This document shows positions 11,965 to 44,022 of a DNA stretch of 57,603 bases, one piece after another. The stretch is from a virus. Taxonomy: Duplodnaviria; Caudoviricetes. The translations under genes and the position numbers were made by a program. The notes beneath the pieces were generated by a model. It was not told where the DNA came from, did no database searches, and was given only the letters and a program-made list of their open reading frames with translations. Location: positions 1 to 57,603 of IMG/VR virus record IMGVR_UViG_3300032319_001187; one strand, written 5' to 3'. Within the stretch, counting starts at the first letter, position 1. Each line of letters starts with the position of its first letter.

Positions 11965-12732
11965 ATGAATCTGACTCAAGAGCAATACGACAAACTTCTT
12001 GCCGATGTAGAGAAAGAGTTTTCTACTCTTCTTGCTAAGGCAGAAGAGCAAGCTGCTCAGCCTCTTGCCAAAGCCGAAGAAGCTAAAAGCGAAGAAGTTA
12101 AGGAAGAAATTAAATCCGAAGCTTCGGAGCAACAGCTAGAAAAGGCCGAAGACAAAGAGGAAGAGAAAAAAGAAGAAAAAGAAGAAGAGAAGAAAGACGA
12201 AGAGAAAAAAGAAGACGGCGAGCATTGCGACTATGACGACGAAGACAAGGAAGAAATGCACAAAATGTATCATTCCATGTCTAAGGGTGAACTAAAAGCT
12301 CATAAAGACACAGTCGAAAAATGCTGGATGGCTAAATGTGGTGAAATGCAAGTAATGAAGTCTGAAGAGCAATCTAAGACCGAAACTCTTGCTAAGCCAG
12401 AAGAAGCCAACAAGGAAGTCGAACTTCTTAAGTCTGAGTCTGAATCTCTTAAGAAAGAGAACGAGTCTCTTAAGAAAAACATCGAGCAGCTTACTGCCGC
12501 GATGACTTCTTTTATTACCAAAAAGGCCCCGGAACGTAAAGCCGTGACCGACATTGGCTTCATTGCAAAAAGCGAAGAATCCAAAGAAGAAACACTTTCA
12601 AAGGCAGAAATCGATAAGATTTTGTCAAAGAAGGCAACCGATCAGTCTTTGTCGAAGGGCGACCGAGATCTGATCAAAAACTACTACCTCAGCGGCGCAC
12701 CAGTTGAAACTGTTCGCCACCTGTTGAAGTAA
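11965..12732 (+). CDS. Capsid scaffolding protein
   Basis: E/K-rich coiled coil directly upstream of the capsid gene, with many LxK-[AS]-E motifs; AAGGAGG RBS. Confidence 0.75.
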   Translation: MNLTQEQYDKLLADVEKEFSTLLAKAEEQAAQPLAKAEEAKSEEVKEEIKSEASEQQLEKAEDKEEEKKEEKEEEKKDEEKKEDGEHCDYDDEDKEEMHKMYHSMSKGELKAHKDTVEKCWMAKCGEMQVMKSEEQSKTETLAKPEEANKEVELLKSESESLKKENESLKKNIEQLTAAMTSFITKKAPERKAVTDIGFIAKSEESKEETLSKAEIDKILSKKATDQSLSKGDRDLIKNYYLSGAPVETVRHLLK

Positions 12733-12757: not shown

Positions 12758-14143
12758 ATGGTTGAACAACTACAATCACTACTGAAAGCCCTGGAGGCAG
12801 GTAGCTACAACGCTGCTCCGAGCCAATTGGCTCAGGGTGCGGCGCTTCAGGTAGAAGATCTATCTCCAGTCATGCAAGTCGTTACTTTTGAAGACAAACA
12901 CATCAAGCTTCAAAAGTCACTCCAAGCAAAAGACTCTAAGTCTCAGCTTGTCCAATTTAATCGCCAGCTAGACTACGGTATCTTTGGCGGTTCCGCTCAA
13001 TATGAAGGCGGAGTCGGCGAAGAAGACACCTCAAGCTACGTCCGTGCGGTAGTGCCAATGGCCTACTACAGCACCGTTCGTCGCGTAACGGTTGCTGCGA
13101 ACATGATCGGTGCATTCGACGGCGTTAAAGCCGAAGAACGCGCTTCCGATGACGCTGCGAAGAAACTCGCTGCCGATATCGAATTCGATCTGTTCCACGG
13201 TCAGGCGCACTTCTCAAACGCTGGTGCGTTTGATGGTAACCCTGCTGTTATGGCGCAGCTTCCTAACATGATTGGTTTGGATGTCCAAATCCGTCAGTCG
13301 GACGCTCAGTCTAACGCTCAGGACCTCATGTTTGCTGAGTACGGTTCGGACCAATCTGTGGTTCTCCCCGTTCACGGCACCATGACCCAGTCAATCATTG
13401 AAGACGCGGCTGTCCGCTCGGCGATGAACATGGGCGCTGCTGACAAGCTTATGCTTGATCCAATCAGCATGGCTGCTTACAACAAGATCGCTCACGCTAA
13501 GGAACGTATCGTTCTCGCAGGCTCTCCTCAGGAAGCTTCGGGCGCGAACCTCCGCCAACAGTGGACTTCTTCGGCTATCGTTTCTCTCGAGCCTAGCCGT
13601 TTCCTCTCTGGTAAGACCAAGCCCGCTCGTAGCCGTGCTGGCGCCGCTGCAGCCCCTGCTGCTCCTGCGGTTGCTGACGCTGGCGCTGCTGGTTCACTTC
13701 TCTCTGCTGCTGCTTACGCTTATGTCGTAACGGCTGTTAACGAGCGCGGTGAGTCTGAGCGTTCTGCTTCGGCCTCTGTTACCCCTGCTGCCGCTGGCAA
13801 CAAGGTAACCGTGACCATCACTGCTGTGTCTGGCGCTAAGTACTACAACGTGTATCGTTCTGAAGCTGGTGGAGCTGCTGCTTCCGCCAAGTTCATCGGA
13901 CGTATCGCGCAAGGTGCTGGTAACCCAGTATTCACCGACCTTGGAGCTAAACTCCCTGGTTTCGTGACTGGCTACCTCCTCCAGATGGATACCTTCGGTC
14001 TTCATCAGATGGCTCCGTACAGCAAGTTGAAGCTGGCTATCAGCGACCTCTCGTTGCCTGAAGCGCACTTCCGTTTCCTCTGCTTGGCTGGTTACCAGCC
14101 CCGCAAGAACGTGGTGCTTGACGACATCAAGGGTCAGCTATAA
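12758..14143 (+). CDS. Major capsid protein (Herelleviridae/Twort-like) with an Fn3-like insertion
   Basis: 461 aa; N-terminal LLKALEAG...GAALQVEDLS; IEFDLFHG; Fn3-like YVVTAVNERGES...YYNVYRS; strong codon bias; followed by a terminator. Confidence 0.88.
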   Translation: MVEQLQSLLKALEAGSYNAAPSQLAQGAALQVEDLSPVMQVVTFEDKHIKLQKSLQAKDSKSQLVQFNRQLDYGIFGGSAQYEGGVGEEDTSSYVRAVVPMAYYSTVRRVTVAANMIGAFDGVKAEERASDDAAKKLAADIEFDLFHGQAHFSNAGAFDGNPAVMAQLPNMIGLDVQIRQSDAQSNAQDLMFAEYGSDQSVVLPVHGTMTQSIIEDAAVRSAMNMGAADKLMLDPISMAAYNKIAHAKERIVLAGSPQEASGANLRQQWTSSAIVSLEPSRFLSGKTKPARSRAGAAAAPAAPAVADAGAAGSLLSAAAYAYVVTAVNERGESERSASASVTPAAAGNKVTVTITAVSGAKYYNVYRSEAGGAAASAKFIGRIAQGAGNPVFTDLGAKLPGFVTGYLLQMDTFGLHQMAPYSKLKLAISDLSLPEAHFRFLCLAGYQPRKNVVLDDIKGQL

Positions 14144-14154
14144 TTTGTTAACCT

Positions 14155-14192
14155 AGGGGTGGGTAAAGCCTGGCTTTACTCGCCCCTTTTTT
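14155..14192 (+). terminator. Rho-independent terminator after the capsid gene
   Basis: GGGGTGGGTAAAGC-CTG-GCTTTACTCGCCCC followed by T6. Confidence 0.85.
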
Positions 14193-14208
14193 AGAAAGGA
14201 TACTTATT

Positions 14209-14505
14209 ATGGCACTTTCAGAAGATACCAAGAAACGACTTGTTATTGCTCTCACCGACGAAGCTGCTGGCCAAGAATTGGCCGATGCTGTTGATGCTGG
14301 TAGTAACCCAAAAGCGGCTACCGTAGCTGCTATTGGAACTACCGTCAACCTCCCTGCTGTTGCGGCTACTTTTGCTACTCTAGCCGACGCTAGGTCTGCA
14401 GTTGAAGCTCAACGCGCTGGCGCAGAGCCTCGTCTTGATGCTGTCGAGGCAAAAATTGACGCCATCCTTGCGGCTCTTAAGGCCGCAGGTTTGATGGCTT
14501 CTTAA
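14209..14505 (+). CDS. Small head decoration/head fibre-like protein
   Basis: 98 aa, Ala-rich, C-terminal KIDAILAALKAAGLMAS typical of head-fibre/decoration proteins. Confidence 0.6.
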   Translation: MALSEDTKKRLVIALTDEAAGQELADAVDAGSNPKAATVAAIGTTVNLPAVAATFATLADARSAVEAQRAGAEPRLDAVEAKIDAILAALKAAGLMAS

Positions 14506-14531
14506 TCCCCCAAATAGCTTCGGCTGTTTGT

Positions 14532-14568
14532 GCAAGGGCTCCTGGAAACGGGGGCCCTTTGCTTTTTT
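14532..14568 (+). terminator. Rho-independent terminator with GAAA tetraloop
   Basis: GCAAGGGCTCCTG-GAAA-CGGGGGCCCTTTGC-T6, preceded by a cTTCGg hairpin at 14511-14530. Confidence 0.85.
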
Positions 14569-15205
14569 ATAGCTTCAACTCTGACGCTAAAAACCTAGCA
14601 GAAAACTCAAGGTCTTTTAAGTCCCCTCGGTTGTCAATTGTAATATCAAAATCAGCGTTATCAAGATCTCTTTCACTTGGGTCAGAAGAGGGGGAGGAGT
14701 TAAATCGCTCTATTCTAACAGTAACTAGGTTTTGGTCGTTTTTTTCTGCAAACTCAACAATTTGCGTCATTTCTGAACCGTAACGCATATCGGTTAGAAC
14801 AACTTTTTCGTTTTTTGCAATTGTTTGTAAGGCCCTTTGTACCCAATACCTTGAATTTACTGATCTTTTTATAGAACCTTCTAAAATAGCCAAGGCTCGA
14901 GGGGTCCAAAAAGATGCCTGTCCAAGTTCTGGAACCTGCCCAGAAGCGGTTCTAAATTCTTTGTATAAAAAGTTTGTTATCATTTGAGAAAACCCGTCTT
15001 GGGGGTCAACTGGAAGATCAAGGATTGCCCGTTCTTTTTGGCTTGAATCATCAAGACTTTTGCGGCTAATCCCGTATTGTTCTGACACCATGTCCTTTAA
15101 AACGTCGGCAAAGGCCACCCGTCTAAATCCGTGGTTTTCTATCAAAAACTTTGCTAGGGTGTCTTTTCCAGAACCCTTCCAGCCTGAAAGCGCTATAATT
15201 GCCAT
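14567..15205 (-). CDS. Deoxynucleoside monophosphate kinase
   Basis: IIALSGWKGSGKDT P-loop, FADVLK, TPR, TDMRY..E, SE..LD. Confidence 0.88.
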   Translation of the reverse strand: MAIIALSGWKGSGKDTLAKFLIENHGFRRVAFADVLKDMVSEQYGISRKSLDDSSQKERAILDLPVDPQDGFSQMITNFLYKEFRTASGQVPELGQASFWTPRALAILEGSIKRSVNSRYWVQRALQTIAKNEKVVLTDMRYGSEMTQIVEFAEKNDQNLVTVRIERFNSSPSSDPSERDLDNADFDITIDNRGDLKDLEFSARFLASELKL

Positions 15206-15244
15206 AAATAAAATAACCTCCGTAGCTTAAGTTAAACGTCAGCC

Positions 15245-15304
15245 TCCGTTTTATGATAATATCATCCGTTTTATGATAATATCATCCGTTTTATGATAAT
15301 ATCA
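15245..15304. repeat. Three perfect tandem copies of the 20-bp unit TCCGTTTTATGATAATATCA
   Basis: Units at 15245, 15265 and 15285; each contains the inverted repeat TGATA-A-TATCA. Confidence 0.95.
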
Positions 15305-15324
15305 CAGTAGAAACCTAGAAGCAA
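15296..15324 (-). promoter_or_regulatory. Sigma70-like promoter of the dNMP kinase gene
   Basis: TTGCTT-17 nt-TATTAT with extended -10 TG. Confidence 0.6.
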
Positions 15325-15369
15325 GGGGTTTACGGCAATCTTAAACAGAGAAGCACAAGGAGTCGTAAA

Positions 15370-15756
15370 GTGAGATTATACGCCAAACCCATTAAGAATT
15401 ACGCAAACATAAACCAGTTTGATTACGCCTCTGAGTGGACTATTCGCCAAGGCGAGGCAAACACTTTGCATTTTCAGCTTGTAGATGCCGATCAAGATAA
15501 CCTAAGATATCTTACTTCGGACGGAACCGCTACCGTTCAAGTCACGTTTCCGGCTGTTAATTCGGCTAACATTATTTCAAAAGCCGCTGCTCAAGTAAGC
15601 TCTTTAGACCGCTCTATTTGGTCGGTTTCTTTGCTTTCTACTGAAATTCCTGCTTCTGGAAACGTTCAAATTGCGGTTACCGAAAACGGTTCAACCCGAC
15701 GTTTTAGTCTTTTGCAGGGGCTTATTGTTGAGCTGATTAATGCTGGGGGCTGTTAA
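15370..15756 (+). CDS. Hypothetical virion protein (beta-sandwich-like)
   Basis: 128 aa, GTG start with AAGGAG, preceded by CAATCTTAAA at 15336. Confidence 0.6.
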   Translation: MRLYAKPIKNYANINQFDYASEWTIRQGEANTLHFQLVDADQDNLRYLTSDGTATVQVTFPAVNSANIISKAAAQVSSLDRSIWSVSLLSTEIPASGNVQIAVTENGSTRRFSLLQGLIVELINAGGC

Positions 15757-16589
15757 TGAGCGACTACACAAAGGGTACAAAAGGTTTTGACACTACAATT
15801 TACCCCGTACACGCAAATGGGACCTCCGGTTTACTCAAGCGTGTAGAGCCTCTTCTTACCCCAGCAAAGCTTAAAAGCCGTTATCTTAAGGGAATCATAG
15901 AAAGGCTTCCTGCCGGAGTGACTTTTAGCGACGAAGAACTTAAGGACCGAATTAACCTGGCTACAAACGAGCTTGAGCTTTTGCTTGGCGTGCCTGTATT
16001 TGCAGAACAGTTTAGAGAAAAACCAGCTTTTGATTACAACCTTTACAAAAGTTTTATTCACATTCGGGCACAACAGGGTCCAATTATTACAATCGAAGAC
16101 CTCGCTATTGTTTCGGCAAACAAACAAAACATCTTTAGAATCCCCGCCGACTGGGTTGAGACGGCAAACTTTCACGAAAGACTAATCAACGTTATTCCCT
16201 TGCTTGCGGCTTACGGCGTAAACACCATTGAGGGCGCGGTTGGTAATGCGGGTATTGCGTTTCTTACCGTTTTAGGCGGCCTTGGCTGGGTTCCCGCCTA
16301 TTGGCAAATTACTTATACAGCCGGGGTGTGCGCAAGTGCCGGCCAGGTTCCAATCCCTGTAAACGAGCTAATTGGATGCATTGCAACAATTAACTTACTT
16401 AGTACGGTTGCGCCAAACAACGCTAATACCTCTGTAAGCCTTAGTCAAGACGGGATCGGGCAATCGAGTAGCAACCCAGGGCCACAAATTTTTGTGCAAA
16501 GAATTCAAGAGCTAGAAGCTAAAAAACAAGCTCTAATTGGACAACTCAAACGAGTCTTCTCTCGTAAGGTGTTCTTGTCAAATATTTAG
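15756..16589 (+). CDS. Head-tail adaptor/neck protein (putative)
   Basis: 277 aa; ITYTAG...IP, SLSQDGIGQS patterns of myovirus head-completion proteins; downstream of capsid. Confidence 0.6.
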   Translation: MSDYTKGTKGFDTTIYPVHANGTSGLLKRVEPLLTPAKLKSRYLKGIIERLPAGVTFSDEELKDRINLATNELELLLGVPVFAEQFREKPAFDYNLYKSFIHIRAQQGPIITIEDLAIVSANKQNIFRIPADWVETANFHERLINVIPLLAAYGVNTIEGAVGNAGIAFLTVLGGLGWVPAYWQITYTAGVCASAGQVPIPVNELIGCIATINLLSTVAPNNANTSVSLSQDGIGQSSSNPGPQIFVQRIQELEAKKQALIGQLKRVFSRKVFLSNI

Positions 16590-16598
16590 GAGCGGACT

Positions 16599-19181
16599 GT
16601 GAAAGAGCTAATTCAAAGACCACACATCATCCTATCAGTAGAAAACCCTGTAGACCCAAGCAAAGCTAAGCGTCCTGTCTCTCATGACGTTGCTTTGAAG
16701 GCGCTCGAAAGAGCCGGTAAAGGGAAAGTAGTTGCTCTTAAGGGCAGCTTTGATAACAAACCAGAACAGTCTATTTTAATTTCTGATCCTGATGAAACGC
16801 AAACCGCCCTTGCCAGGAAGCTTGCTTCTGATACAGGGCAGCATTCTTATATTGAAAGCGATGGATACAGCCATAAAATGATTTCTGGCGAGGGGCCTCA
16901 TGCCGGTGAAGTTATTCATGGCAAGGGAACTACTTTTTATTCCGAAAAGCCCAAGGACATGTACTCTACACTTCCAGACGGCACTCACTTTATTCATAAC
17001 TTTAATTTTGAAAAATCAGAAAAACCTTTTCACGGTTACAATCCTAAAAAACACGCCAAAACCGGCGGTCTAAACGACAAGGAAAGAAAAAGGATTAATC
17101 GAGAAGAAGGCCGGAATTTAAAGCGCCCTCAGCCAGAAGGTGGCGCTCGCAAAAAAAGCTTTTGCGCTCGAATGTCTGGCGTTAAGGGCCCTACGTCAAA
17201 AGGCGGTAAGCTTACCCCAAAAGGCGCTGCTCTTAAACGCTGGAAATGCAGTAAGTCCGAAGAGCACATTCCTGGCGGTATTGCCTCTAAAGAAGATATT
17301 AAAAAGCTGCCAAAAGACCTTTTAGATCAGGGTACAAAAGTTGAAATGGAGCATACCTCTGATCCTAATATTGCAAGAGAAATTGCTGCCGACCATCTAA
17401 TGGAAGATCGCCATTATTATAGCAAGCTTTCTGAACTAGAAAAGTCTAAAAACGTGCGCGAACAACGCGCTAAGGTTTTTGGTACTGACCCTAACGCCCC
17501 TCGCACCTCTGAACGTCGCATGAAAATGATGCAGCGCATTCGAGATTACGCAGAAAAAAAATACGGCCTTCCTTTGGTCACTGCTTCTGGAAAGCGCGAC
17601 GAATCAGGAGAAGTTCGAGATGAAGGTTATCAAAAACCTTATGACGTGTTTACCCCTAAAGGGGTTGCTCAGGAAAAAAAATATCTTGAGCAATTAAAAG
17701 AACAAGGTGAAAAAAGAACCGACCCAAAGCCAGACTGGCGTTCAGGCCAGCTTGAGACCCAGCCCTCTCCTGATGCTGCCGTACATGAATTGGCTCACCT
17801 AGATCTAGCCCCCGAAAGCATGACTGCCCCAGAGTTTCAATCTGAAATGGATCGTCGATGGGGCGAATCTCAATCTAAATATGGTCACATGCAGCAAAAG
17901 CGTACTCAAGGTGAAATTCAGCCAATGGCCGTTGAAAATCCTATCAGGCGCGAGCTTGGTCTTCCTGCAAACAGGGCGACTAAGCCGGTCAAAGAGCAAG
18001 AGTACGCTTTAGACGACCCTTCTCAGCCCAGGTTTGTTGAAGGCCTTGACCCTAAGGGCCGTAAAGCTTTTTACGATCGCCAATCAAGGCTTCAGTCTCC
18101 AGAAACTAGGGAACGAAGAGAGGCCGTTTCTAGTGGAACTTTAAAGTTTCATCCAGAGCGCGGCTGGTATAAAGCTACAGATCCAAACGCTCTTATCAGT
18201 TTAAGAGCACAAGGAAAGCCTGAAGAGGCTGTTTCTAGACAAAAAGAGCGCTATGGTTTAAAAGATAAAAAGATGGCAGCAAGCGAGGAGCCATTGATGA
18301 AACCTTATCACTCAGAAGCACAGCGCCGCTGGGCCCATACCTCTGCTGGTACCAAGGCTTTGGGCGGCAAAAAAGCCGTTAAAGAATGGGACGAGTCTTC
18401 TCGTGGGTTAAAACTGCCAGAAAAGGCTGTCAAATCGGTTCCTGATGCTTGCGATTGCGATTTGGAAAAGGGAACAATTGGGCCAAAATGCAAAGAAAGA
18501 TTTAAATCTTATCAGTCTTCTTTGAATAAAAAAGATCGTTGTTGGGAGGGGTACGAGCCTACGCCAGGTAAAAAGCCTTATTCAAAAGGATCTTGCCGAC
18601 CAATCAAAAAAGGAGAGATCAAAAAAGCGTGGACTCTTTCTGTAAATAAAAATCCTGACCCATCAAAACAAAGTATCAATTTTTCTCACCCAGAACACGG
18701 CACAGTTTCTGTTATAAAACAAAGTGGGATGTACCATGTGCGCCACAATGGAGGAATAGCCGGTATGATGGGTCACAAAGGTGTTTATCCAGACCTAAAG
18801 TCCGCTGTTGCACATGCTAACAACTATACCAAGGGTGTTGAATCGGGCAAGATTCAAGGAAAAACATCAATGAATATGCCCAGCCTACCGGGAAGCAGCT
18901 CATTGGGTAAATCCGATCCAGGTTCTTGGACGCATAAAGGATACACGTTTTCAGAAACAACTCACCCTAAAACTCCGGCGGGGCATAAAGCTTATTCTTT
19001 AACCCATCAACAAAGTGGTAAAACCGATATCCTTTTTGCTCGCTCCCCAGAAGAAGTGGGCAAACATATTGATAGGGTTACCTGGAAGCCTAAGTGGTTT
19101 CAAGAGGAATCTGACACTAAAAAAAATGTGGGGTCAGCTCCGGGCAGAGACCCAATGAGCCCTTTTAATAAGAAAGGCTAA
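16599..19181 (+). CDS. Modular polyprotein 1: SAM-lyase-like domain, SFCARM module, MEH/DHL module, HExxH domain and small modules
   Basis: ILSVENP...GSF..PEQS...GQHS; RKKSFCARMSG...ALKRWKC; GTKVEMEHT...IAADHL.ED..YYSKL; VHELAH; PYHSEAQRRW; CWEGY...GSC. Modules are separated by xxK-[SAG] linkers. Confidence 0.75.
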   Translation: MKELIQRPHIILSVENPVDPSKAKRPVSHDVALKALERAGKGKVVALKGSFDNKPEQSILISDPDETQTALARKLASDTGQHSYIESDGYSHKMISGEGPHAGEVIHGKGTTFYSEKPKDMYSTLPDGTHFIHNFNFEKSEKPFHGYNPKKHAKTGGLNDKERKRINREEGRNLKRPQPEGGARKKSFCARMSGVKGPTSKGGKLTPKGAALKRWKCSKSEEHIPGGIASKEDIKKLPKDLLDQGTKVEMEHTSDPNIAREIAADHLMEDRHYYSKLSELEKSKNVREQRAKVFGTDPNAPRTSERRMKMMQRIRDYAEKKYGLPLVTASGKRDESGEVRDEGYQKPYDVFTPKGVAQEKKYLEQLKEQGEKRTDPKPDWRSGQLETQPSPDAAVHELAHLDLAPESMTAPEFQSEMDRRWGESQSKYGHMQQKRTQGEIQPMAVENPIRRELGLPANRATKPVKEQEYALDDPSQPRFVEGLDPKGRKAFYDRQSRLQSPETRERREAVSSGTLKFHPERGWYKATDPNALISLRAQGKPEEAVSRQKERYGLKDKKMAASEEPLMKPYHSEAQRRWAHTSAGTKALGGKKAVKEWDESSRGLKLPEKAVKSVPDACDCDLEKGTIGPKCKERFKSYQSSLNKKDRCWEGYEPTPGKKPYSKGSCRPIKKGEIKKAWTLSVNKNPDPSKQSINFSHPEHGTVSVIKQSGMYHVRHNGGIAGMMGHKGVYPDLKSAVAHANNYTKGVESGKIQGKTSMNMPSLPGSSSLGKSDPGSWTHKGYTFSETTHPKTPAGHKAYSLTHQQSGKTDILFARSPEEVGKHIDRVTWKPKWFQEESDTKKNVGSAPGRDPMSPFNKKG

Positions 19182-19182
19182 T

Positions 19183-21651
19183 ATGAGCTGGCTTGGGCTT
19201 AAGAAAGCTTTTAAAAAAAGTCTTGCTTTGAAAAAGGCTCCTATAGCCTATCATGGCAGCACTCAAGCTTTTGAAGAGCACACTCGCCCAAAAAAAGACC
19301 CTAAGGCCACTCTGAACTATGGCCCTGGCATTTATTACGCTACGGACCCAGAAGAGGCCTCTTCTTACGCCGAGCCTCAAATTGCTCGGGTTGATACGCA
19401 TGCGCAAGCTTTTTCTGAGGTTCAAAAAGATCCTCAATATAAAATCTATAGAGATAAAGTGGCTCAAAAATTTGGTCTTTCAAGCTCTACGGACACCCGG
19501 CATAAAAATTGGGAAAAGTTTGCAGATCATATGTTTGAGTACGACAAGCAAAAAGTCGCAGAAAAGTTGGGCTTAACACCAAACGTTCGTAGAGCAGACG
19601 TTCAAGTTAAAAATCCTTTTAATCCGCACGATCCAAAGCACGCTATTAAGGTCTATCAGACTCTAGGCCACGAGCCAAACATGTTTAGGCTCAAAAACGA
19701 AGCGGCTGTGGGCGCCAATTTATATCATCATATTGCTCACGAAATCCCTGCTTGGGGTGATATGAAATGGGGAGAGCGAACCTGGCACTTAAACAGGGCA
19801 ATTAAGCGAGCGGGCTTTGATGGTATTCATGATCAAAAACTAGGTCATATTATTGCTTTCAGTCCAAAACAAGTTAAACCGGCTTTTGGTTCAGAAAAAG
19901 CTCCCAAAAAGATGGCGGCAAGCGAGCTAGACAAAGCCGTTCGCGGTCCCCGCAAAGGCCACACTATTGCCCAGCTTGAAAGACTTAAAGAAATGGGTTG
20001 GCATAACCCAGACACAGGGACTGAGATTAGTGAGGGAGAAGGCGAAGTCCATCTTATGCAGCTTAGGCAGCAAAAAGCAGACAAGCAGCTTAAGCAAATG
20101 ATCAAGCCTAAAAAGCCAAAACCTTCTACCGATAAACCCGAGGATTGGTTTGGCTCTAGTGAAAAAATGAAAAAGGGCGTTGCTCGCCGTTTGTTTCCAT
20201 TTAATCCACAAAAGGTGCCTGAAACTGAACGCGCCGATGTAAATGAGTGGCAGACCTATGGAAACGAGCCTGCGCCTGACCTTGATTATTACAGAGATCC
20301 TCAAACAGCTCGGGAAGAGCTTGACCCAATAAATCCTCACGCAAAACAAAGAGCGCTTTTAAAGCTTGCCTCCTATACTAAAACTAGAAAGAACCCATCA
20401 ACCGGTGAAAGAGAGTTCCTTCTTCATCGCGGAGTTCTTGGTCACGAACACGATTACGTTACTGAAGGCGACAACTATAGCTATAATGCACAGCGAAGCT
20501 CTTGGACGCCTCGTTATGATAAGGCTAGATCATTTACTACAACGTCGGGCCACTCCTCAAATGAAAATATGGAATATCCCGAAGAAGAGAGTCGCCCAGG
20601 ACAAGTTATTTCTGCTTGGATTCCTGAGTCCAAAATTGTTCATACTCCTTATATGTACGGAGGAGTTTCTAGTCCGCACAGTCGAGGAGAAAACGATTAT
20701 AGAAAAGAACACGAAATTATTGTAGCACCCCACAAAGGGAAAATGGTGCCGCATATGGAGGCCTTTCCTCCTCAAATGCCAACTCGCGCCAATCGAATTG
20801 CCGAGCTTTCGCATCAGGCAAAAAAAAGAGCTGAACAAAGACAAGCTATTGAAACCAAAATGAAGCAGCCGCTTCAGCCTAAATTTCCTAAAAAACCTAA
20901 AAAGACTGACCCAAATCAGCTCGAGCTTCCCTTGGCGGCTTCTGAGTCTTATTTGTCCTTGTTAGGGTTAAAGAAAAAAGAAAGTTTATATAAAAATTTA
21001 CAAAAAGCAGTAGCTTCTTCTACCGCTCCTGCCGTTAAAATAAACCCCGAGCACGGCAAGATTATTGCTAACGCATATGAAAACATGAAGCATGATCCAA
21101 ATCACCCTGAGGTTAAAGCGGCATACGGGGCGCTGGTTGATGAGACTAAGAAACAATTTAAGGACATGCTAAACCAGGGGTTAAAAATATCAAAAATAAC
21201 AGATCCAAAACACAATCCATACCCAACATCGAAGCATTTACATGCCGATGTTGATAAGGGGCACATGTGGCTGTTCCCCACCGAACTCGGCTTCGGTAGT
21301 GAGGCAGATATGCCTAAAGACCACCCCATGCTTCAGCCTACGGAGTTCATGCACGAGGGTAAGCCTCTTCTTGCTAACGATGTATTCCGACTCGTTCACG
21401 ACAGTATCCATCATAAATTAAGGAATGGTTTTGGTCCAAAAGGGGAGCACGAAAGTTTCCTAGAGCACAAAAAAACATACAGTCCTCTGGCCCAAAAAGC
21501 TTTGGCCACAGAAACAATGGGTCAAAATTCATATGTAAATTTTTCTAGTGAAATCGGGCACTTAAATCAAGAAAAACCCGGCAGCGCATATGCCCCCCAA
21601 AAGGCCGGTCTATTGCCCAGTGATATAATCAATGGGAGGTGGCATGAATAA
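19183..21651 (+). CDS. Modular polyprotein 2: two ADP-ribosyltransferase-like domains plus an FRxxHD domain
   Basis: YHGS...GPGIYYATDPEEASSYA...KNPF...GFDGI...IAFSPKQVK; LHRG...SSWT...EHEIIV; NDVFRLVHD...ETMGQNS. Confidence 0.78.
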   Translation: MSWLGLKKAFKKSLALKKAPIAYHGSTQAFEEHTRPKKDPKATLNYGPGIYYATDPEEASSYAEPQIARVDTHAQAFSEVQKDPQYKIYRDKVAQKFGLSSSTDTRHKNWEKFADHMFEYDKQKVAEKLGLTPNVRRADVQVKNPFNPHDPKHAIKVYQTLGHEPNMFRLKNEAAVGANLYHHIAHEIPAWGDMKWGERTWHLNRAIKRAGFDGIHDQKLGHIIAFSPKQVKPAFGSEKAPKKMAASELDKAVRGPRKGHTIAQLERLKEMGWHNPDTGTEISEGEGEVHLMQLRQQKADKQLKQMIKPKKPKPSTDKPEDWFGSSEKMKKGVARRLFPFNPQKVPETERADVNEWQTYGNEPAPDLDYYRDPQTAREELDPINPHAKQRALLKLASYTKTRKNPSTGEREFLLHRGVLGHEHDYVTEGDNYSYNAQRSSWTPRYDKARSFTTTSGHSSNENMEYPEEESRPGQVISAWIPESKIVHTPYMYGGVSSPHSRGENDYRKEHEIIVAPHKGKMVPHMEAFPPQMPTRANRIAELSHQAKKRAEQRQAIETKMKQPLQPKFPKKPKKTDPNQLELPLAASESYLSLLGLKKKESLYKNLQKAVASSTAPAVKINPEHGKIIANAYENMKHDPNHPEVKAAYGALVDETKKQFKDMLNQGLKISKITDPKHNPYPTSKHLHADVDKGHMWLFPTELGFGSEADMPKDHPMLQPTEFMHEGKPLLANDVFRLVHDSIHHKLRNGFGPKGEHESFLEHKKTYSPLAQKALATETMGQNSYVNFSSEIGHLNQEKPGSAYAPQKAGLLPSDIINGRWHE

Positions 21652-22417
21652 TTTTAAAAAAACAAGCCCTAAAAAGATTCAAAAACACACAAAAGAGACC
21701 GCAGCAGCAGATGCCTTGAAATATAAAACCAAAAGAGAGTGGTGCGAAAATGACGCTGGCAGCTATTTGGCTTCTTTGAAAAATAACTGGATTGACGATC
21801 TTTGTAAGCACATGAACAACAAGAGAAAGAAAGCTCCTACTTTTGAAGAAATAAAATCAGCAGCTTTACTGTATAATAGCAGAGGGGAGTGGGATAAAAA
21901 AGATAGAAGAACTTACAATCAAGCAAGAAAAATCAACTGTCTTGATCAAGTTTGCCAGCACATGCTGGGCGGAGGGAGATCTGGTCCAGAGTCTGAAATT
22001 TTAAACATGGTTAAAACAAAATTTCCTTCTGTTATGTCTAAAATGTTTAAAAATGAAGATCCTAGGTTTCCTTTAAAAAGATACGAATTAGATTTTTATA
22101 TTCCAGAATTAAAGCTAGGAATAGAATTTGACGGAAAATATTGGCATTCATTTAAAGTTCTTTCTAAAAGAAAAAATTTAACAAAAGAACAGGCTCGCAC
22201 CTATCATGAAGATAAAGATAGCTTTTTTGAAACATTAGGCATAAAAGTTTTTCACATAAAAGAAGAAGATTGGTATTTAAATAAAGATTTTATAAAAACA
22301 AATCTATCGCATTTTCTTGGGCTAGGAACTGCTATGAATAGAGCTAGGCGCGCAAGAAGGCAGTGGGAAGAAACAATAAAAGAAATTCGAGAAGAACTGG
22401 GGTCTCTAAATGTCTAA
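21644..22417 (+). CDS. Free-standing PD-(D/E)xK (Vsr/DUF559-like) endonuclease, probable homing endonuclease
   Basis: YELDFYIPELKLGIEFDGKYWH, two N-terminal ~50-aa repeats ending CxHM, AT-rich DNA. Start placed at ATG 21644 after GGAGG. Confidence 0.8.
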   Translation: MNNFKKTSPKKIQKHTKETAAADALKYKTKREWCENDAGSYLASLKNNWIDDLCKHMNNKRKKAPTFEEIKSAALLYNSRGEWDKKDRRTYNQARKINCLDQVCQHMLGGGRSGPESEILNMVKTKFPSVMSKMFKNEDPRFPLKRYELDFYIPELKLGIEFDGKYWHSFKVLSKRKNLTKEQARTYHEDKDSFFETLGIKVFHIKEEDWYLNKDFIKTNLSHFLGLGTAMNRARRARRQWEETIKEIREELGSLNV

Positions 22418-25055
22418 ACTTCACAGACTTCACAGAATTTTAACTGCTGAGTATCAACAAGAGCTTAAAGAACTTATTAAGCCTGACAACGTGGGTGGCA
22501 CAACCAAGCCGTCTTCTATTGAGAAAATGTCTCGGCCCAGAATCACTTTTCCTGGGCTTCCTCAAGTTACAACTCGTCCCGACCAAGAAGTTCAATCTAT
22601 TGAAACGGCTAGGCAAAAAGAGCTTTTTGGCAGAAAAGCGGCAGCCGATATTAAAGATCAAACAGCCCCCGTATATCAGCTTGGCAGTAAAACAAGTGAG
22701 CGACTTGTAAGCAGAAAACAAGAAAGAGAAAAAGAAGCCAAAAGAATCGCCGGTAAATTTGATCGACGAACCCTTGGCATAAATGTTGACACAAAGCATG
22801 GCCCTAAATCTGCGGCTATAGCTGGCAAGCTTAGATCAAAATACGAAGAAGGCGATAGCGAATACGAATCTAAAATGGCGGAACACAAGCAAAAAAGAGC
22901 TGCTGCTATTAAAGAACATAACAAAAAAGTAGACGAGTGGAGCGCAAAAGCCCAAGAGATTAGGGCTAAAATGCAGCAAGCCTCCACTCCTGAAGAGCGA
23001 AATGCTGTAATGAACGAGTTCATTGAGCACAAAGCCGTCGTTCCAAAGTTTAAAGCCCCAAAAGCCCCTTCTAAAAAACGCAAAGCAACAACCGACTTGT
23101 CCCCTGAACAGGCGGCGTTAAGAGGAAAAGCAACCAGCGCAACCATTGAGCATGAAGGGTTTCATCATATCTTTGATGACATTGGACATAAATATGGCCC
23201 AGTGGCTGCCGCAAATGCAAGAAAAAAGATATTAGAGCAGCATAATTTAGACACTTTAGGAGAAGTCGGCACGTTTATTAGTACTCGGCTTGGGTACAAC
23301 CCTAAGTCTAGTCATTTTACGGAAGAAGTTTTAGCTCACTCCAGAGACATTCTTGTCAACCCAAGAAAACGCGAGGCCTTTAAACAGTTTTTGGGATCGG
23401 AAAAAGCCGACCAACACATTAAAAATTTAAAGCAAGGCCATCAAAGAGCATATGAGGCGGCAAAAAAACTTACTTTGGCAGATATTATGCCGGCAGAAGC
23501 TTCTGTTCAGGAGCCTAAAAAAATGGCGGCTTCCGAGCTTGCTAAGGCTCCTGTTGAAAATGAAGAAACTGTAAAACTATACCATATAACCGACAAAGCG
23601 CGTTTTAAATTAAACCCAAACTACGCGCCGGAAGATAACGCGGTTGCAATACAAGATCGTTCGGGTCGCAAAGGAATTTATGCGGCACCTAGCGTTGAAG
23701 AGTGGGTCAACGGCCATGGTTATGCTCGGCCATTTGTTGCCGAACTGCATGTGCCAAAATCGCTCTTGTCTGACAAAAGCGTTGGTGGCCGATGGGGTCG
23801 TGAAAAATTTATACCAGCCGAGCATTTTGACAAAATTAAAGTACACCGCGTCATTCCAATTGACGCTCATGCTCGAGAAACCTATGGCTCACATGGCTGG
23901 TTTGAGGGTGAGTCCGGCGAAGAGTTTGATACTGGCAAGCCTATTACTACTAAAGAAACCTATCCTTTTAAAGGCTACCATTATAGTGGAAAAGACGCTC
24001 GAGAAATGTTACCGGACGAAGTTAAGCAAATTAAGCAGCGTTTTGCGCAAGGTTACAAAACACGTTTTGGTAAATCCGAACTCCGCAAAGCTCCAATTGA
24101 AAACGTAGATACTTCCATAGGTCGGGAAGTACCCGAACATCCTATGAAAGAGCGGTATGAGTATTCGGCTAAGTCTACCGAAGTTGCGCCTGGGATTTAT
24201 CATCACGCTCTTTTTAGCAATAGAAATCAAGAAGCCCTGCACATGCTAAGCGATCATTCAGACCCCTTTTACCCTAAAGCGACAATATACTCCCAACTAT
24301 TAGGAGATGCCGAAAAGTTCACCGGGGCCCCTCTTATGGTACAGCTTAGCCAAGTTCATCCTGAGCACAAGGGTAAGGGGCATGGAAAAGCCCTTTACGA
24401 GTTTGCTTTGGCCCATCACGGAGCCCTCCACTCCGACGAGCTAGTAAGCCCTCAAGCAGAAGACGTTTATCGTCATCTTGCAGACAAGGGGGCTCAAGTA
24501 AAATTTGGCGAGCCAGACACAAGAGAGCGGCACAAAGCAAGAATAATGCCAGGTTTTAAACCTTCTTCGGCAAAACTTGCGGCAAGTGAAAAAATGGGTT
24601 ATAGTAAAAAAATGGAGAAGGTAACTTTAGAACACTATAGCTCTGTTTCTGGAATTAAAGAAATTGATCCTGCCCACCAAGGGGCCGGTGCCGATGCCAG
24701 AACAAAAGGGCGGTCGTCCGAACATCCCCATAGTTTTTACTATCGCAAAGGCACGGCGCTTCCGCCAGAAGACGCGCACATTCATCAAAGCGCTGCTAGC
24801 CGTTACGAAATCGATATCCCGGACGATGCAAAGCTTTATGATTTAAGCACGGACCCAGAAAAACATATTGAATCTTTGCGACAAGAGTCTGTGTCTAGAG
24901 CTGTTAATCCCGGCGCCGTGTCTATGGACGATATTCACGGAAAGCTAAAAGGGTTAGGTTATCATGGGTTTTATGCTTCTCTACACCCAAGCCTTTCAAA
25001 CGTTGTGGGCTTGTATCATTCCACGCCTGTTTCTAGAGAGGAGAAACTAAAATGA
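22410..25055 (+). CDS. Modular polyprotein 3: HExxH domain, ART-like domain, GNAT acetyltransferase, C-terminal ART-like domain
   Basis: HEGFH; LYHIT...GIYAAP...ELHVP...EKFIP; VHPEHKGKGHGKALY; LEHYS...IDP..QG.G...SFYY...GYHGF; AASE and LxKA linkers. Confidence 0.78.
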   Translation: MSKLHRLHRILTAEYQQELKELIKPDNVGGTTKPSSIEKMSRPRITFPGLPQVTTRPDQEVQSIETARQKELFGRKAAADIKDQTAPVYQLGSKTSERLVSRKQEREKEAKRIAGKFDRRTLGINVDTKHGPKSAAIAGKLRSKYEEGDSEYESKMAEHKQKRAAAIKEHNKKVDEWSAKAQEIRAKMQQASTPEERNAVMNEFIEHKAVVPKFKAPKAPSKKRKATTDLSPEQAALRGKATSATIEHEGFHHIFDDIGHKYGPVAAANARKKILEQHNLDTLGEVGTFISTRLGYNPKSSHFTEEVLAHSRDILVNPRKREAFKQFLGSEKADQHIKNLKQGHQRAYEAAKKLTLADIMPAEASVQEPKKMAASELAKAPVENEETVKLYHITDKARFKLNPNYAPEDNAVAIQDRSGRKGIYAAPSVEEWVNGHGYARPFVAELHVPKSLLSDKSVGGRWGREKFIPAEHFDKIKVHRVIPIDAHARETYGSHGWFEGESGEEFDTGKPITTKETYPFKGYHYSGKDAREMLPDEVKQIKQRFAQGYKTRFGKSELRKAPIENVDTSIGREVPEHPMKERYEYSAKSTEVAPGIYHHALFSNRNQEALHMLSDHSDPFYPKATIYSQLLGDAEKFTGAPLMVQLSQVHPEHKGKGHGKALYEFALAHHGALHSDELVSPQAEDVYRHLADKGAQVKFGEPDTRERHKARIMPGFKPSSAKLAASEKMGYSKKMEKVTLEHYSSVSGIKEIDPAHQGAGADARTKGRSSEHPHSFYYRKGTALPPEDAHIHQSAASRYEIDIPDDAKLYDLSTDPEKHIESLRQESVSRAVNPGAVSMDDIHGKLKGLGYHGFYASLHPSLSNVVGLYHSTPVSREEKLK

Positions 25056-26134
25056 AACTTTCTTTTGAAGAAATGTTTAAGTCCGAAGACCACAAATCTT
25101 TGGCGGCTAAGGGCTTGATGTTAGGCTATCCGGTAAAAGTTCAAGGCAAAACCCACCGCTCAGACGGGATTGCCCACCATGTAACTGTTAAGTTTTTTGA
25201 GGGAGAACACGCAGACCCTGAAAAGGCCCACATTGCGGCTATGAAGCTTCCTCTTCAGTCTATTGACGCAACTAAAACTCATGTTAAACCCTTAGTTTTT
25301 CCAACTCGATTTGGAACAACGGTTCATGTCTTGGGGCTTCATGGCCCCGGTGTAGACCACGTTGTCCAAAGCCACGAGGCCCTTGCTTCTATGGGAATTC
25401 CTGACCGGTTTAAATTTATGCCGCACGTTACCGTAGATAAAGAAATCCATGAAATGGCAAGCAAAAACCCAGAGGCCACTGCAGCGGATCTCGGTTTAGA
25501 ATTTGGGGAGCCCGAGTTAAAGTTGGGGCCAGAAAAACTTCATGCTTATAGCAAGATGAAAAAGTCTGTAAGGGGCGCTCTAACCGCCTTGGGGATTGCG
25601 GCGGCGGTAGCCGGCGGCCCAACCGACATAAAAGAAAAACCCATCCAACCCCCTACGCAAGCTCAACATAGAAATGCAGTTAAGCATAGATTTTTGTCTT
25701 CTGTTCAAGAGGTTGAATCGCGTAGCGGAAAAGACACGGAGCATGCAAGTATTGAAAGTGGTCCCTTAAAGGGGCAAAGAGCTTATGGAAAATATGGGCT
25801 TATGCCTATCACAATCCAAGAAACTGTAAAAAGCCATCCCGACTTAAAGCGTCAGTATGGTAAGATTTTAAATCTTAACCATCAGCAGGTTCATGGCTAC
25901 ATGAAAGCCCATCCCCATCTTGAAGATGAAGTTGCGGGTAGACACACCGACCGCCTTATACACGTTTTTAACGGTGACGTAGATTCTATGGCCATGGCAT
26001 GGCTAAACGGCATTGCCGGGACAGTCCGGGCTAAGCAAAACGGCAAAAACCTTAAAGACCATTGGTACGTTAAAAGAATTCGAGCGGCATCTGGTAAGCC
26101 TTTGGAATCACAAAAGAAGTCTAAGATCAAGTAA
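25052..26134 (+). CDS. Modular polyprotein 4: 2H phosphoesterase (Acb1/T4 57B-like) fused to a lysozyme/transglycosylase-like domain
   Basis: Two HxT motifs (HHVTV, PHVTV); MKKS linker; then VES..G...AYGKYGLMP.T...AWLNG. Confidence 0.78.
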   Translation: MKLSFEEMFKSEDHKSLAAKGLMLGYPVKVQGKTHRSDGIAHHVTVKFFEGEHADPEKAHIAAMKLPLQSIDATKTHVKPLVFPTRFGTTVHVLGLHGPGVDHVVQSHEALASMGIPDRFKFMPHVTVDKEIHEMASKNPEATAADLGLEFGEPELKLGPEKLHAYSKMKKSVRGALTALGIAAAVAGGPTDIKEKPIQPPTQAQHRNAVKHRFLSSVQEVESRSGKDTEHASIESGPLKGQRAYGKYGLMPITIQETVKSHPDLKRQYGKILNLNHQQVHGYMKAHPHLEDEVAGRHTDRLIHVFNGDVDSMAMAWLNGIAGTVRAKQNGKNLKDHWYVKRIRAASGKPLESQKKSKIK

Positions 26135-26155: not shown

Positions 26156-26698
26156 ATGGACGTTAAGCCGTCAGAAATTGAAGAAGTAAAAGTTATTGGA
26201 AACATTGAGGGCAAACCCGTAAAGCTAATTAAAACCGCCGGAGGTTTTTGGATGGCTATTGGAGCCCCTCGAGGAAAAGCCAAGGAAGAGGCTTTGGCTG
26301 CCGGCTCTCACCCCGCTATCGTTAAGTATAACGTTCAAAAACAACACTCCGATTATCAGCCCGTTCTTGAAAAAAGCGAAACGGAACCCGAAACAGATGT
26401 AACTGGTTTAAGCGAACTTCTCCCTAAAACCTCGAGAGACCAGGGTTTTGATCTTTACAGTCTTAAAAAAGGTAATGAAATTAACTACGTAGTTACTAAA
26501 TTTGGCTCTGAGGCCATTGCCTTTCGTGCCACAATTGTAGACGACGCTGTTGTTATGGCAAAAGCCAATAAGCCGTCTCAAGAGCCCATACAAGGTCTTG
26601 GCGCTGCAATTACACAGGCTCTTGTTCGGGACGCAATTGATTTGAAAAAAAGCGAAATCGTACACGGCTCTATTAAGCTTAAGGTTAAGGCTAAATAA
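26156..26698 (+). CDS. Hypothetical protein (late)
   Basis: 180 aa, GAGG RBS, TAATCTTTA upstream, LEKSE and LKKSE motifs. Confidence 0.65.
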   Translation: MDVKPSEIEEVKVIGNIEGKPVKLIKTAGGFWMAIGAPRGKAKEEALAAGSHPAIVKYNVQKQHSDYQPVLEKSETEPETDVTGLSELLPKTSRDQGFDLYSLKKGNEINYVVTKFGSEAIAFRATIVDDAVVMAKANKPSQEPIQGLGAAITQALVRDAIDLKKSEIVHGSIKLKVKAK

Positions 26699-44021: not shown

Positions 44022-44022
44022 G

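Follow-up and report, generated by a model that had tools for sequence, protein, structure and literature searches.

Polyvalent proteins are widespread in phages, yet how they are loaded into the capsid and disassembled has been an open question since 2017. As described in that year by Iyer, Burroughs, Anantharaman and Aravind (PMC5512222), these are phage or plasmid polypeptides that each join two to fifteen unrelated globular domains. The question is raised again by a locus at positions 16,599-26,134 of the IMG/VR virus record IMGVR_UViG_3300032319_001187, where four genes encode long, multi-domain proteins amid the head genes of a virus. We analyzed the entire record (57,603 bases, completeness estimate 36%; hereafter, the window), which from its sequence we identify as a fragment of an uncultured Mx1/SPO1-like myovirus. 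With a probability of roughly 60%, we read the locus as a hypervariable slot of head-packaged polyvalent cargo that is cut by the prohead protease of the phage. The locus and its relatives offer a concrete answer to the question of loading and disassembly, the elements of which are a defined linker sequence, a named protease, natural protease-cargo fusions, and a cultured relative, Myxococcus phage Mx1.

The argument turns on seven genes, listed below. P0001, P0002, P0004 and P0005 are working labels for the cargo genes of the locus; other P numbers denote homologs, and L numbers (L003, L004, L005, L006, L007, L028 and so on) denote related viral loci.

16599-19181, plus strand: cargo polyprotein 1 (P0001), 860 residues
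19183-21651, plus strand: cargo polyprotein 2 (P0002), 822 residues
22410-25055, plus strand: cargo polyprotein 3 (P0004), 881 residues
25052-26134, plus strand: conserved core cargo gene (P0005), 360 residues
10353-11261, minus strand: prohead (head maturation) protease, 302 residues; domain at about residues 1-175, followed by a tail with FKSEE, MEKA and a segment like the capsid N-arm
11965-12732, plus strand: scaffolding protein, 255 residues, between the protease and capsid genes, with nine hydrophobic-x-K-[SA]-E sites
12758-14143, plus strand: major capsid protein (phrog_752, E 1.3e-45), with a leader ending in LLK-ALE (residues 8-13)

The starts and stops of the four cargo genes, all on the plus strand, abut or overlap in an operon-like manner. 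A prediction made earlier from the bare sequence (the original prediction) had recognized these four co-oriented genes correctly, but it overlooked a fifth open reading frame; the locus holds genes for 860, 822, 881 and 360 residues of cargo and a 261-residue homing endonuclease. It had further proposed that the genes are chains of unrelated domains, that the domain boundaries carry the same motif as the scaffold and capsid proteins, and that the maturation protease cuts the precursors there into more than a dozen separate effectors.

Homology breakpoints and AlphaFold models of P0001 and P0004 (mean predicted local distance difference test, pLDDT, of 66 and 73) divide the cargo proteins into four to seven modules each, given here by residue number with names that are in part provisional, as explained below.

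P0001, modules: SAM-lyase-like, 1-136; DUF6321, 141-217; DUF5661, 233-282; HExxH, 284-556; DUF6321-like, 565-672; beta module, 677-768; tail, 772-860
P0001, linkers: FEKSE, 137-141; CSKSEE, 217-222; LEKSK, 280-284; KKMAASE, 557-563; IKKGEIKKA, 669-677
P0002, modules: leader, 1-19; ART-PolyVal, 20-237; small module, 253-325; putative R-S-ExE ADP-ribosyltransferase (ART), 333-520; K/P-rich spacer; FRxxHD module, 614-822
P0002, linkers: KKMAASELDKA, 242-252; MKKG, 329-332; LAASE, 584-588; LQKA, 606-609
P0004, modules: helical leader, 1-34; HExxH, 41-365; possible ART-like, 385-540; possible GNAT, 562-718; possible ART-like (MbcT-like), 736-881
P0004, linkers: IEKM, 37-40; KKMAASELAKA, 370-380; FGKSELRKA, 553-561; KLAASE, 722-727
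P0005: leader MKLSFEEMFK-SE, 1-12; 2H phosphoesterase-like, 12-165; MKKS linker, 169-172; hydrophobic segment, 176-189; SLT-like transglycosylase, 213-350

The P0001 model is confident at residues 1-133 and 280-555, with low confidence at 134-253, 562-565, 593-643, 671-677 and 717-860. For P0004, residues 41-365, 588-720 and 734-881 are modeled confidently, and confidence is low at 27-40, 370-426, 437-533, 546-577 and 721-733.

Searches with the whole cargo proteins name few of these parts. Pfam recognizes DUF6321, DUF5661, ART-PolyVal and, weakly, GNAT, and Pfam and PHROGs together leave most modules without a name; phmmer of P0005 and P0002 against PDB chains gave nothing below E 0.7, and Foldseek of the P0001 and P0004 models against the PDB gave no match at E 0.001 or better. 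Homologs and conserved residues are more informative. The assignment of P0001 1-136 as a phage SAM-lyase-like module, which had been predicted, is supported both by sequence and by the model: although P0001 itself has no Pfam S-AdoMet_lyase match at E < 0.1, its homologs P0091 (29.4 bits) and P0093 (30.0 bits) exceed the 28-bit cutoff of that family (PF23780), and the matching stretch of these homologs aligns to P0001 4-140 at E 1e-23 to 1e-26. Two phage SAM lyases occupy the first two ranks among 48,161 chains compared with the P0001 model by VIA, namely 7ock_L (Z 7.2, root-mean-square deviation 4.8, 120 residues aligned), which is also the top Foldseek match (E 0.03), and 6zm9_A (Z 6.3, root-mean-square deviation 4.2, 91 residues aligned). 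Modules of four relatives are 36-42% identical to it.

Four ART-like modules had been predicted, of which the two in P0002 are the clearer. P0002 22-237 matches Pfam ART-PolyVal (33.6 bits, cutoff 31.2). P0002 333-520 keeps R416, S440, E509 and E511 at 90% or more across 51 sequences, a pattern that fits the R-S-ExE motif, which we take to consist of an Arg, a Ser-x-Ser region and a Glu-x-Glu; its Atlas neighbors DRAT, ADPrib_exo_Tox and Mod_ADP_RT (0.89-0.91) serve as leads only. The two in P0004 (385-540 and 736-881) show conserved H/Y/E residues, and the second aligns to the ART-fold toxin MbcT (VIA, Z 6.9), which weakly suggests a third and a fourth ART-like module. Fold matches of P0004 in BFVD include proteins named "PolyVal ADP-Ribosyltransferase" and "Large polyvalent protein associated domain". 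The GNAT assignment of P0004 562-718 is likewise weak: GNAT folds head the fold lists (Foldseek, E 0.037 or worse; VIA, Z 7.5-7.9 to the GNAT-like domains of ICL2 and Rv1916), and the Pfam Acetyltransf_7 match (E 0.0059) falls under the cutoff.

Both predicted HExxH motifs are real and conserved at 90% or more, H396/E397/H400 of P0001 in 116 sequences and H248/E249/H252 of P0004 in 31, as are acidic residues downstream of each. Neither module matches Pfam MPTase-PolyVal, and neither Foldseek nor VIA gave a zincin fold in searches with the whole 860- and 881-residue models, in which one domain fills each list; the best VIA matches for these modules are YfcM (Z 6.0) and coiled coils. The remaining predicted enzymes are supported. 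P0005 12-165 has two HxT motifs (HVTVKF and HVTVDK) whose histidines, H43 and H125, are invariant in five of five sequences, in keeping with the 2H phosphoesterase superfamily, which is defined by two H-x-T/S-x motifs on a duplicated lobe; the top PDB match of its profile, PH0099 (1vdx, E 0.11), presumably a 2'-5' RNA ligase, spans both motifs. P0005 213-350 has no Pfam match of its own but aligns (29% identity, E 1.5e-9) to P0056 335-472, of which 335-457 matches Pfam SLT (PF01464; 24.4 bits, cutoff 21.3), and a [VIL]-E-S motif, compatible with the catalytic Glu-Ser of SLT domains, recurs in P0005, L003, L004, L005 and Mx1. The FRxxHD module (P0002 614-822) also has residues conserved across its homologs, and an Atlas search with P0002 610-822 returned only unnamed viral clusters. 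DUF6321 and DUF5661 are Pfam matches in P0001, on which we found no literature. The DUF6321 module, present twice in P0001 (141-217 and 565-672), is predicted to be disordered and is widespread as the C-terminal end of small open reading frames in unrelated viral contigs (L009-L027; 58-68% identity). A stand-alone version of the P0001 HExxH module (284-562) exists as P0190, of 302 residues. Taking the domain mosaic, ART-PolyVal and the predicted fold neighbors together, we class the cargo proteins as polyvalent proteins as Iyer et al. (2017) define them.

Do the motifs mark the places where these modules join? We mapped breakpoints as the ends of local alignments between the four cargo proteins and 282 homologs plus the open reading frames of related loci. 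The map peaks at residues 138, 219, 280, 564 and 670 of P0001, 239-255, 325 and 615 of P0002, 35, 378, 556 and 735 of P0004, and 168 of P0005. Around the 15 internal sites that match the loose motif [LIMFV]xK[SAG], the mean share of breakpoints within 8 residues on either side is 0.098, compared with 0.022 under the null (4.5-fold), a coincidence reached by none of 10,000 shuffles. In P0001 and P0004, every breakpoint-supported linker lies in a low-pLDDT, non-regular stretch between confident domains. Nine of the 12 sites to which the original prediction had assigned domain boundaries (FEKSE, LEKS, IKKA, LDKA, MKKG, LQKA, LAKA, LRKA and MKKS) fall within about 10 residues of a breakpoint peak; LKKA, at P0002 residue 16, belongs to the N-terminal leader, and for LEKG and LGKS, both in low-pLDDT stretches, homologs provide hardly any data. 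Two further loose-motif matches, VDKG at P0002 690 and VPKS at P0004 448, lie inside modules.

A second linker, K-[LM]-A-A-S-E, which the original prediction had not named, is stronger. Its [ML]AASE form occurs five times in the six-frame translation of the window, each time in one of the three giant genes, and has no counterpart in the scaffold. Since three copies read KKMAASEL-x-KA, this linker and xxK-[SAG] are often halves of one unit. The Ala and Ser codons vary among the copies, so conservation acts on the peptide, and an origin of the linkers as recent DNA repeats was rejected. We also rejected the idea that KKMAASE preserves the start codons of formerly separate genes, as relatives mostly have Leu in place of Met (131 versus 27). 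Across 359 related proteins (300,597 residues), the linker-type AASE pattern occurs 160 times, in 111 proteins, compared with 2, 1 and 1 occurrences of reversed or permuted patterns, and the strict motif, hydrophobic-x-K-[SAG]-[ED], occurs 703 times versus 263 for its reverse. Among 415 internal module starts in relatives, drawn from ten module families, 283 have the motif within a 30-residue start window, versus 18% of random windows, with the reservation that the homologs were gathered by searching with modules of the window itself and the junction statistics come from a biased sample. What precedes a module at such junctions varies widely: the upstream neighbors form 25 clusters among 81 in the case of the HExxH module, and 43 among 102 in that of the P0002 C-terminal module.

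The strict form of the motif is characteristic of the head proteins. The scaffolds of all five relatives are studded with it, at similar density in Mx1, L003, L004 and L005, and a logo of 45 scaffold sites shows L at -2 (53%), S (64%) or A (31%) at +1, and E at +2 (91%); by our own count, the SPO1 scaffold has 11 hydrophobic-x-K-S sites. Between the capsid proteins of the window and of Mx1 (a phage of 169.6 kb), identity is 54%; with SPO1-like Bacillus phages it drops to about 26%. The N-terminal K-A-[LM]-E-A-G of the capsid protein is kept in five of five relatives and recurs in SPO1 gp6.1 at K23/A24. The HK97 capsid protein is reportedly cut after Lys in a hydrophobic-x-K-S context, and SPO1-like capsid proteins are said to lose about 23 residues; our literature search found no experimental N-terminus for an SPO1-like capsid protein. 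Leaders resembling that of the capsid protein (MVEQLQSLLK-AL) begin P0005 (MKLSFEEMFK-SE) and the L003 cargo protein (MDYFLELLK-AE), and among 256 relatives that do not begin with a protease domain, 30 contain the strict motif in residues 1-21, roughly three times the expected number of about 10. P0001 begins straight with its SAM-lyase-like domain.

The gene at 10353-11261 matches PHROG "head maturation protease" families (phrog_1028, E 4.9e-8), and phrog_1028 is matched by six of six aligned protease homologs. By tblastn, the protease domain finds 36 phage records at 80% coverage or more, including annotated prohead serine proteases, and its homology to SPO1 gp3.2 and other annotated prohead proteases spans 88% of the domain or more; identity is 29.5% to the SPO1 gp3.2 head maturation protease (E 2e-6) and 39% to the putative prohead protease of Mx1. 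H48 and S131 are invariant in the homolog alignment. A dedicated search found 77 proteins of relatives, each of at least 530 residues, in which the protease domain is fused to other domains, and in 76 of the 77 it is N-terminal. The tails carry DUF6321, DUF5661, GNAT, NUDIX, GGDEF and PI3/4-kinase domains. In L028 (731 residues), L006 (865), L003 (500) and Mx1 (1239), a long protein begins with the protease domain and continues with cargo-type modules joined by KSE/KAE and KLAASE linkers; the L028, L006 and L003 tails include homologs of P0001 147-563, P0001 638-765 and P0004 722-870. A conserved F-K-S-E-E ... I-L-E-K segment, found in the window protease too, immediately follows the protease domain.

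Prohead proteases operate inside the procapsid and cut themselves, as in HK97, T4 and phiKZ. Anything fused to such a protease would therefore reach the head interior and be exposed to the protease there, and we regard the fusions, at the level of sequence, as decisive new evidence tying the cargo modules to the prohead protease.

Three further features of the protease gene are of interest in themselves. A segment reading A-G-x-x-N-A-A-P-S-Q-L..G-A-A-L recurs in the C-terminal protease tails of the window (10353-10730), L003, L028, L006, Mx1 and SPO1 gp3.2; it resembles the start of the mature capsid protein and could act as a tether that mimics the capsid. The first strand of the protease (window about 11190-11230, minus strand) reads G-I-A-A-S-E..D-S-S-G-E in most relatives and has an A-A-S-E core in common with the cargo linker K-L-A-A-S-E, so that 37 of 197 matches to the linker pattern are this strand. 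In the window, L003 and L004, the protease gene is on the minus strand and so runs opposite to the plus-strand head genes around it, whereas in Mx1 it is co-oriented with them.

The mechanism that we propose would run in four steps. The slot genes would encode polyvalent precursors in which self-contained enzyme modules (SAM lyase, ADP-ribosyltransferases, GNAT, 2H phosphoesterase, HExxH modules, and an SLT transglycosylase with a hydrophobic segment) are joined by short conserved linkers. Entry of these precursors into the procapsid would depend, in many relatives, on their being fused directly to the prohead protease, and in the window probably on short N-terminal leaders resembling that of the capsid protein. 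Inside the procapsid, the serine prohead protease (10353-11261), which would also break down the scaffold and trim the capsid protein, would cut them after the Lys of hydrophobic-x-K-[S/A/G], and also at or beside K-[L/M]-A-A-S-E. The freed modules would stay in the head, leave with the DNA, and act before any phage gene is expressed, the SLT part helping to cross the wall and the enzymes acting on host takeover or defence. The idea of modular, head-loaded precursors cut by the maturation protease is partly supported, by the fusions, the K[LM]AASE linker, the leaders, relatives that keep the motifs without HExxH modules, and the variable size and module content of the slot; the steps themselves are ones that we infer.

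Several observations weigh against this proposal, and the first of them concern the motif. The loose motif occurs 19 times in the 2923 residues of cargo (6.5 per 1000), which amounts to chance, as the density is no higher than in a 651-residue intein-containing protein encoded elsewhere in the window (5 sites, 7.7 per 1000; the 255-residue scaffold has 9), and enrichment of the loose motif in cargo was rejected on this count. An acidic residue follows at +2 in nine of nine scaffold sites but in 5 of 19 cargo sites, none of them in P0002; what cargo is seen to have in common with the scaffold and capsid protein is the motif class. Seven junction sites (LDKAV, LAKAP, LRKAP, LQKAV, MKKGV, MKKSV and LKKAP) instead read K-[AGS]-[V/P], and may be poorly cut, cut by another enzyme, or left uncut. 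Because these differ from the K-[SA]-E of the scaffold, the equivalence of scaffold and junction sites is unproven.

Could the linkers, then, simply be flexible joints that permit domain shuffling, in proteins that are late cytoplasmic enzymes or uncut structural components, neither cleaved nor injected? The linkers are K/P/E-rich and predicted to be disordered, the chance frequency of the loose motif agrees with such a role, and so does the lack of a scaffold-type acidic residue at most junctions. Reversed or permuted controls of the same composition, however, are 2.7-fold (strict motif) to about 100-fold (LAASE) less frequent, and the codon differences between copies leave no recent DNA homology that recombination could use. 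That these modules also occur fused to a protease acting inside the procapsid makes a purely cytoplasmic life unlikely, and an SLT domain with a hydrophobic segment is reportedly typical of ejected proteins such as T7 gp16. We consider this explanation quite improbable.

A different objection accepts packaging and leaves the prohead protease out. P0001 and P0004 each contain an HExxH module with a conserved, catalytic-looking motif, so self-processing may occur in this phage, and the proteins might be packaged whole or processed by these embedded, zincin-like peptidases. The conservation of the HExxH and of the downstream acidic residues (at least 90%) in both modules favors this, as does the fact that the P0001-type HExxH module is the commonest of the family, found in 111 proteins. 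Iyer et al. (PMC5512222) propose, in the body of their article, that MPTase domains cleave the proteins of which they are part, and give N4 vRNAP as an example of packaging without cutting. Several points tell against it. The same linkers are found in P0002 and P0005, which contain no HExxH module, and the motif reaches its highest density in scaffolds, substrates of the prohead protease; MPTase-PolyVal matched neither HExxH module, and the fold searches on whole-protein models gave no zincin for them. Two 100%-complete relatives and Mx1 contain neither module type (the same query matched four of four positive controls), and a scan of their cargo and protease tails for HExxH gave a single, chance-looking match in Mx1. 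If HExxH modules did the cutting, the sites should be lost from such genomes; these three keep the motifs in scaffold, cargo and protease tail, which counts against this alternative. The only protease that we found to be common to the window and the HExxH-free relatives is the prohead protease. Self-processing or packaging whole is, in our view, unlikely, if the most credible of the alternatives that we weighed.

Cleavage by the prohead protease faces other reservations as well. Incorporation and packaging, cleavage, the scissile bond, retention, ejection and the targets are all matters that we infer. The cut is placed after Lys (K / [SAG]) by analogy with what is reported of HK97 and SPO1-like phages, and a counter-defence role is suggested by what is known, at the family level, of SAM lyases, ARTs and 2H enzymes. 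The protease has no sequence match in Pfam or the PDB, including searches with a domain profile against the PDB and with six family members against Pfam. The module borders of P0002 are set by homology breakpoints only, and our literature search found nothing on Mx1 virions. Finally, the predicted number of more than a dozen separate effectors was too high, because several mini-modules, among them DUF6321 and P0001 717-860, are predicted to be disordered; some of these may be basic filler or DNA-binding segments, and perhaps not enzymes.

What does the slot contain in related phages? It lies directly 3' of a homolog of SPO1 gp6.3, inside the head and virion-structural gene block, and is closed by a conserved gene of 167-180 residues. 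Its content among the relatives ranges from 353 to about 2900 residues:

L003: one gene, 377 residues
L005: one gene, 353 residues
L004: an endonuclease and one gene of 490 residues
Mx1: two genes, 1479 and 619 residues
The window: about 2900 residues of cargo

The gene with 2H, hydrophobic and SLT segments (P0005 type) is the only slot gene common to all the relatives compared; it makes up the whole of the L003 and L005 genes, the C-terminal part of the 490-residue L004 gene, and an internal part of the 1479-residue Mx1 gene. Modules are swapped around it at the linkers: L004 has the SAM-lyase module joined directly to the core at LEKSE, L028 has it joined to the P0002 C-terminal module, and L007 has P0001 modules in a different order. 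HMMER finds at least 4,804 cluster representatives related to P0001.

The conserved core could also be read as a sign that the cargo, though packaged and cut, is mainly structural or mechanical, as part of an inner body or ejectosome that would organize the DNA and open the envelope, with general host takeover in the manner of T4 Alt in place of counter-defence. The predicted disorder of DUF6321 and other basic mini-modules would suit such a role, and phiKZ-like phages do pack protease-cut ejection proteins in large amounts (PMC10052503, main text). The variable part, on the other hand, consists of enzymes whose relatives act in defence or host control (phage SAM lyases and ARTs, with NUDIX and GGDEF in related phages), and the extreme module turnover between close relatives is what an arms race predicts. 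We hold a mainly structural role to be the least probable of these alternatives.

If head-packaged cargo cut by the prohead protease is the correct reading, the sequences of uncultured phages could directly reveal candidate capsid cargo, effector modules could be catalogued by cutting at the linkers, and a linker together with a leader might serve, in laboratory systems, to bring proteins of choice into phage heads. A bolder generalization would make the Mx1/SPO1-like prohead protease a general device for loading and releasing cargo, such that any domain placed behind the protease or a capsid-like leader of about 10 residues, and bracketed by K-L-A-A-S-E or hydrophobic-x-K-[SAG], becomes capsid cargo that enters the procapsid, is released by cutting, and is injected. 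We put this forward tentatively and think it somewhat more likely wrong than right. If it were true, thousands of phages would own a plug-and-play, pre-expression arsenal whose modules are exchanged at linkers, and the rates of cutting at K-[SA]-E and at K-[AGS]-[VP] or KLAASE would differ, thereby ordering scaffold removal and cargo release.

How far is such a system foreshadowed by known ones? The closest are the polyvalent proteins themselves (PMC5512222), which likewise combine many unrelated conflict-type domains in one polypeptide (ART-PolyVal, HExxH and lysozyme/transglycosylase among them), occur in phage structural-gene neighborhoods, and are predicted to be delivered with the DNA. 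In the article's main text, however, processing is attributed to embedded MPTase domains, the word "linker" does not appear, and "prohead" occurs in the reference list only; its supplements, which lie outside this comparison, may list similar architectures. What distinguishes the present locus and its relatives is a linker grammar common to scaffold and capsid, cargo-protease fusions, and motifs that are kept without the HExxH modules searched for.

The T4 internal proteins and Alt reportedly reach the head by a capsid targeting sequence and are processed by the gp21 prohead protease. Like them, judging from the genes, P0005 would be head-packaged, with what may be a short N-terminal leader that ends at a protease site; one protease is said to serve for scaffold and capsid protein alike, and the cargo, which in T4 is injected, includes an ART. 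T4 cargo is, by the same accounts, single-domain and cut once after Glu, whereas here multi-module precursors have internal sites, would likely be cut after Lys by a protease of the SPO1 gp3.2 type, and in relatives have the protease as their carrier.

The phiKZ-like phages, including SPN3US (gp175/gp245; PMC10052503), have many head-internal proteins that are processed by the prohead protease at a short motif and ejected, and their protease cleaves off its own C-terminal piece; we predict both here. Of the 14 sites mapped in SPN3US, 13 release N-terminal propeptides, which for the most part exit the head, and the word "polyprotein" is absent from the body of that article. In our locus, folded enzyme modules make up the stretches between sites, and the motif is a different one.

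MuF polymorphic toxins of temperate phages (PMC5576092) similarly place a head-morphogenesis protein N-terminal to variable C-terminal effectors, with possible capsid delivery, and an Atlas structural neighbor of the P0002 ART is a Phage_Mu_F + ART cluster. Their carrier is MuF and not a protease, each protein has one toxin domain, and no protease-site linker grammar is reported for them. The Dar proteins of P1 (DarA, DarB and Hdf; in part from the main text of PMC5512222) are said to be large, head-packaged, proteolytically processed anti-restriction proteins encoded near head genes, properties that we predict for our cargo. They belong to other families, are incorporated by an ordered dependence among Dar proteins, and are not described there as a modular linker system.

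Three features appear to be new: the linker grammar common to scaffold and capsid protein, multi-module precursors whose between-site pieces are folded enzymes, and the widespread use of the prohead protease itself as a carrier. Our literature search, which covered Iyer et al. 2017 without its supplements, found no description of any of the three, and nothing beyond that article and one unrelated preprint that ties the prohead protease to polyvalent proteins.

The genes around the slot follow the order of Mx1 and SPO1: portal region, protease, scaffold, capsid protein, small genes, gp6.3 homolog, and further virion genes. A search with 12758-26134 found no near-identical DNA among named phages. 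The genes that frame or interrupt the slot are as follows.

15756-16589, plus strand: structural gene opening the slot, 277 residues, homolog of SPO1 gp6.3 (phrog_772, E 1.6e-11)
21632-22417, plus strand: free-standing homing endonuclease, not cargo, 261 residues (phrog_3339, E 4.7e-22; phrog_559, E 2.5e-15)
26156-26698, plus strand: conserved gene closing the slot, 180 residues, with LEKSE mid-protein and homologs in L003, L004, L005 and Mx1

The slot-opening protein, 34% identical to its Mx1 homolog and 24% to SPO1 gp6.3 (E 4e-9), was the anchor with which L003-L005 were retrieved. The slot-closing protein has hydrophobic-x-K-S-E at the same place, at mid-length, in every one of these relatives, and may be a further protease substrate or a cargo-loading factor. 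The homing endonuclease, wedged between the second (P0002) and third (P0004) giant genes of the cargo operon, is 37% identical to the endonuclease at the head of the L004 slot (L004 10838-11821); such endonucleases may aid the transfer of adjoining cargo modules between phages.

Three observations concern other parts of the window. The 651-residue head-region protein used above for comparison (7913-9868, plus strand) is split by an intein that contains a LAGLIDADG endonuclease (LAGLIDADG_3, E 1.3e-16, and Intein_splicing, E 1.7e-6, in Pfam), and the true portal may be the 606-residue open reading frame at 5536-7356. Between the capsid and neck genes, on the opposite strand (14567-15205, minus), lies a deoxynucleoside monophosphate kinase gene (phrog_139, E 2.7e-37), and Mx1 has a thymidylate synthase and a kinase at the equivalent place. 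Far from the head genes, 43389-44036 (minus strand) encodes a 215-residue protein with hydrophobic segments and three strict motifs in its C-terminal part.

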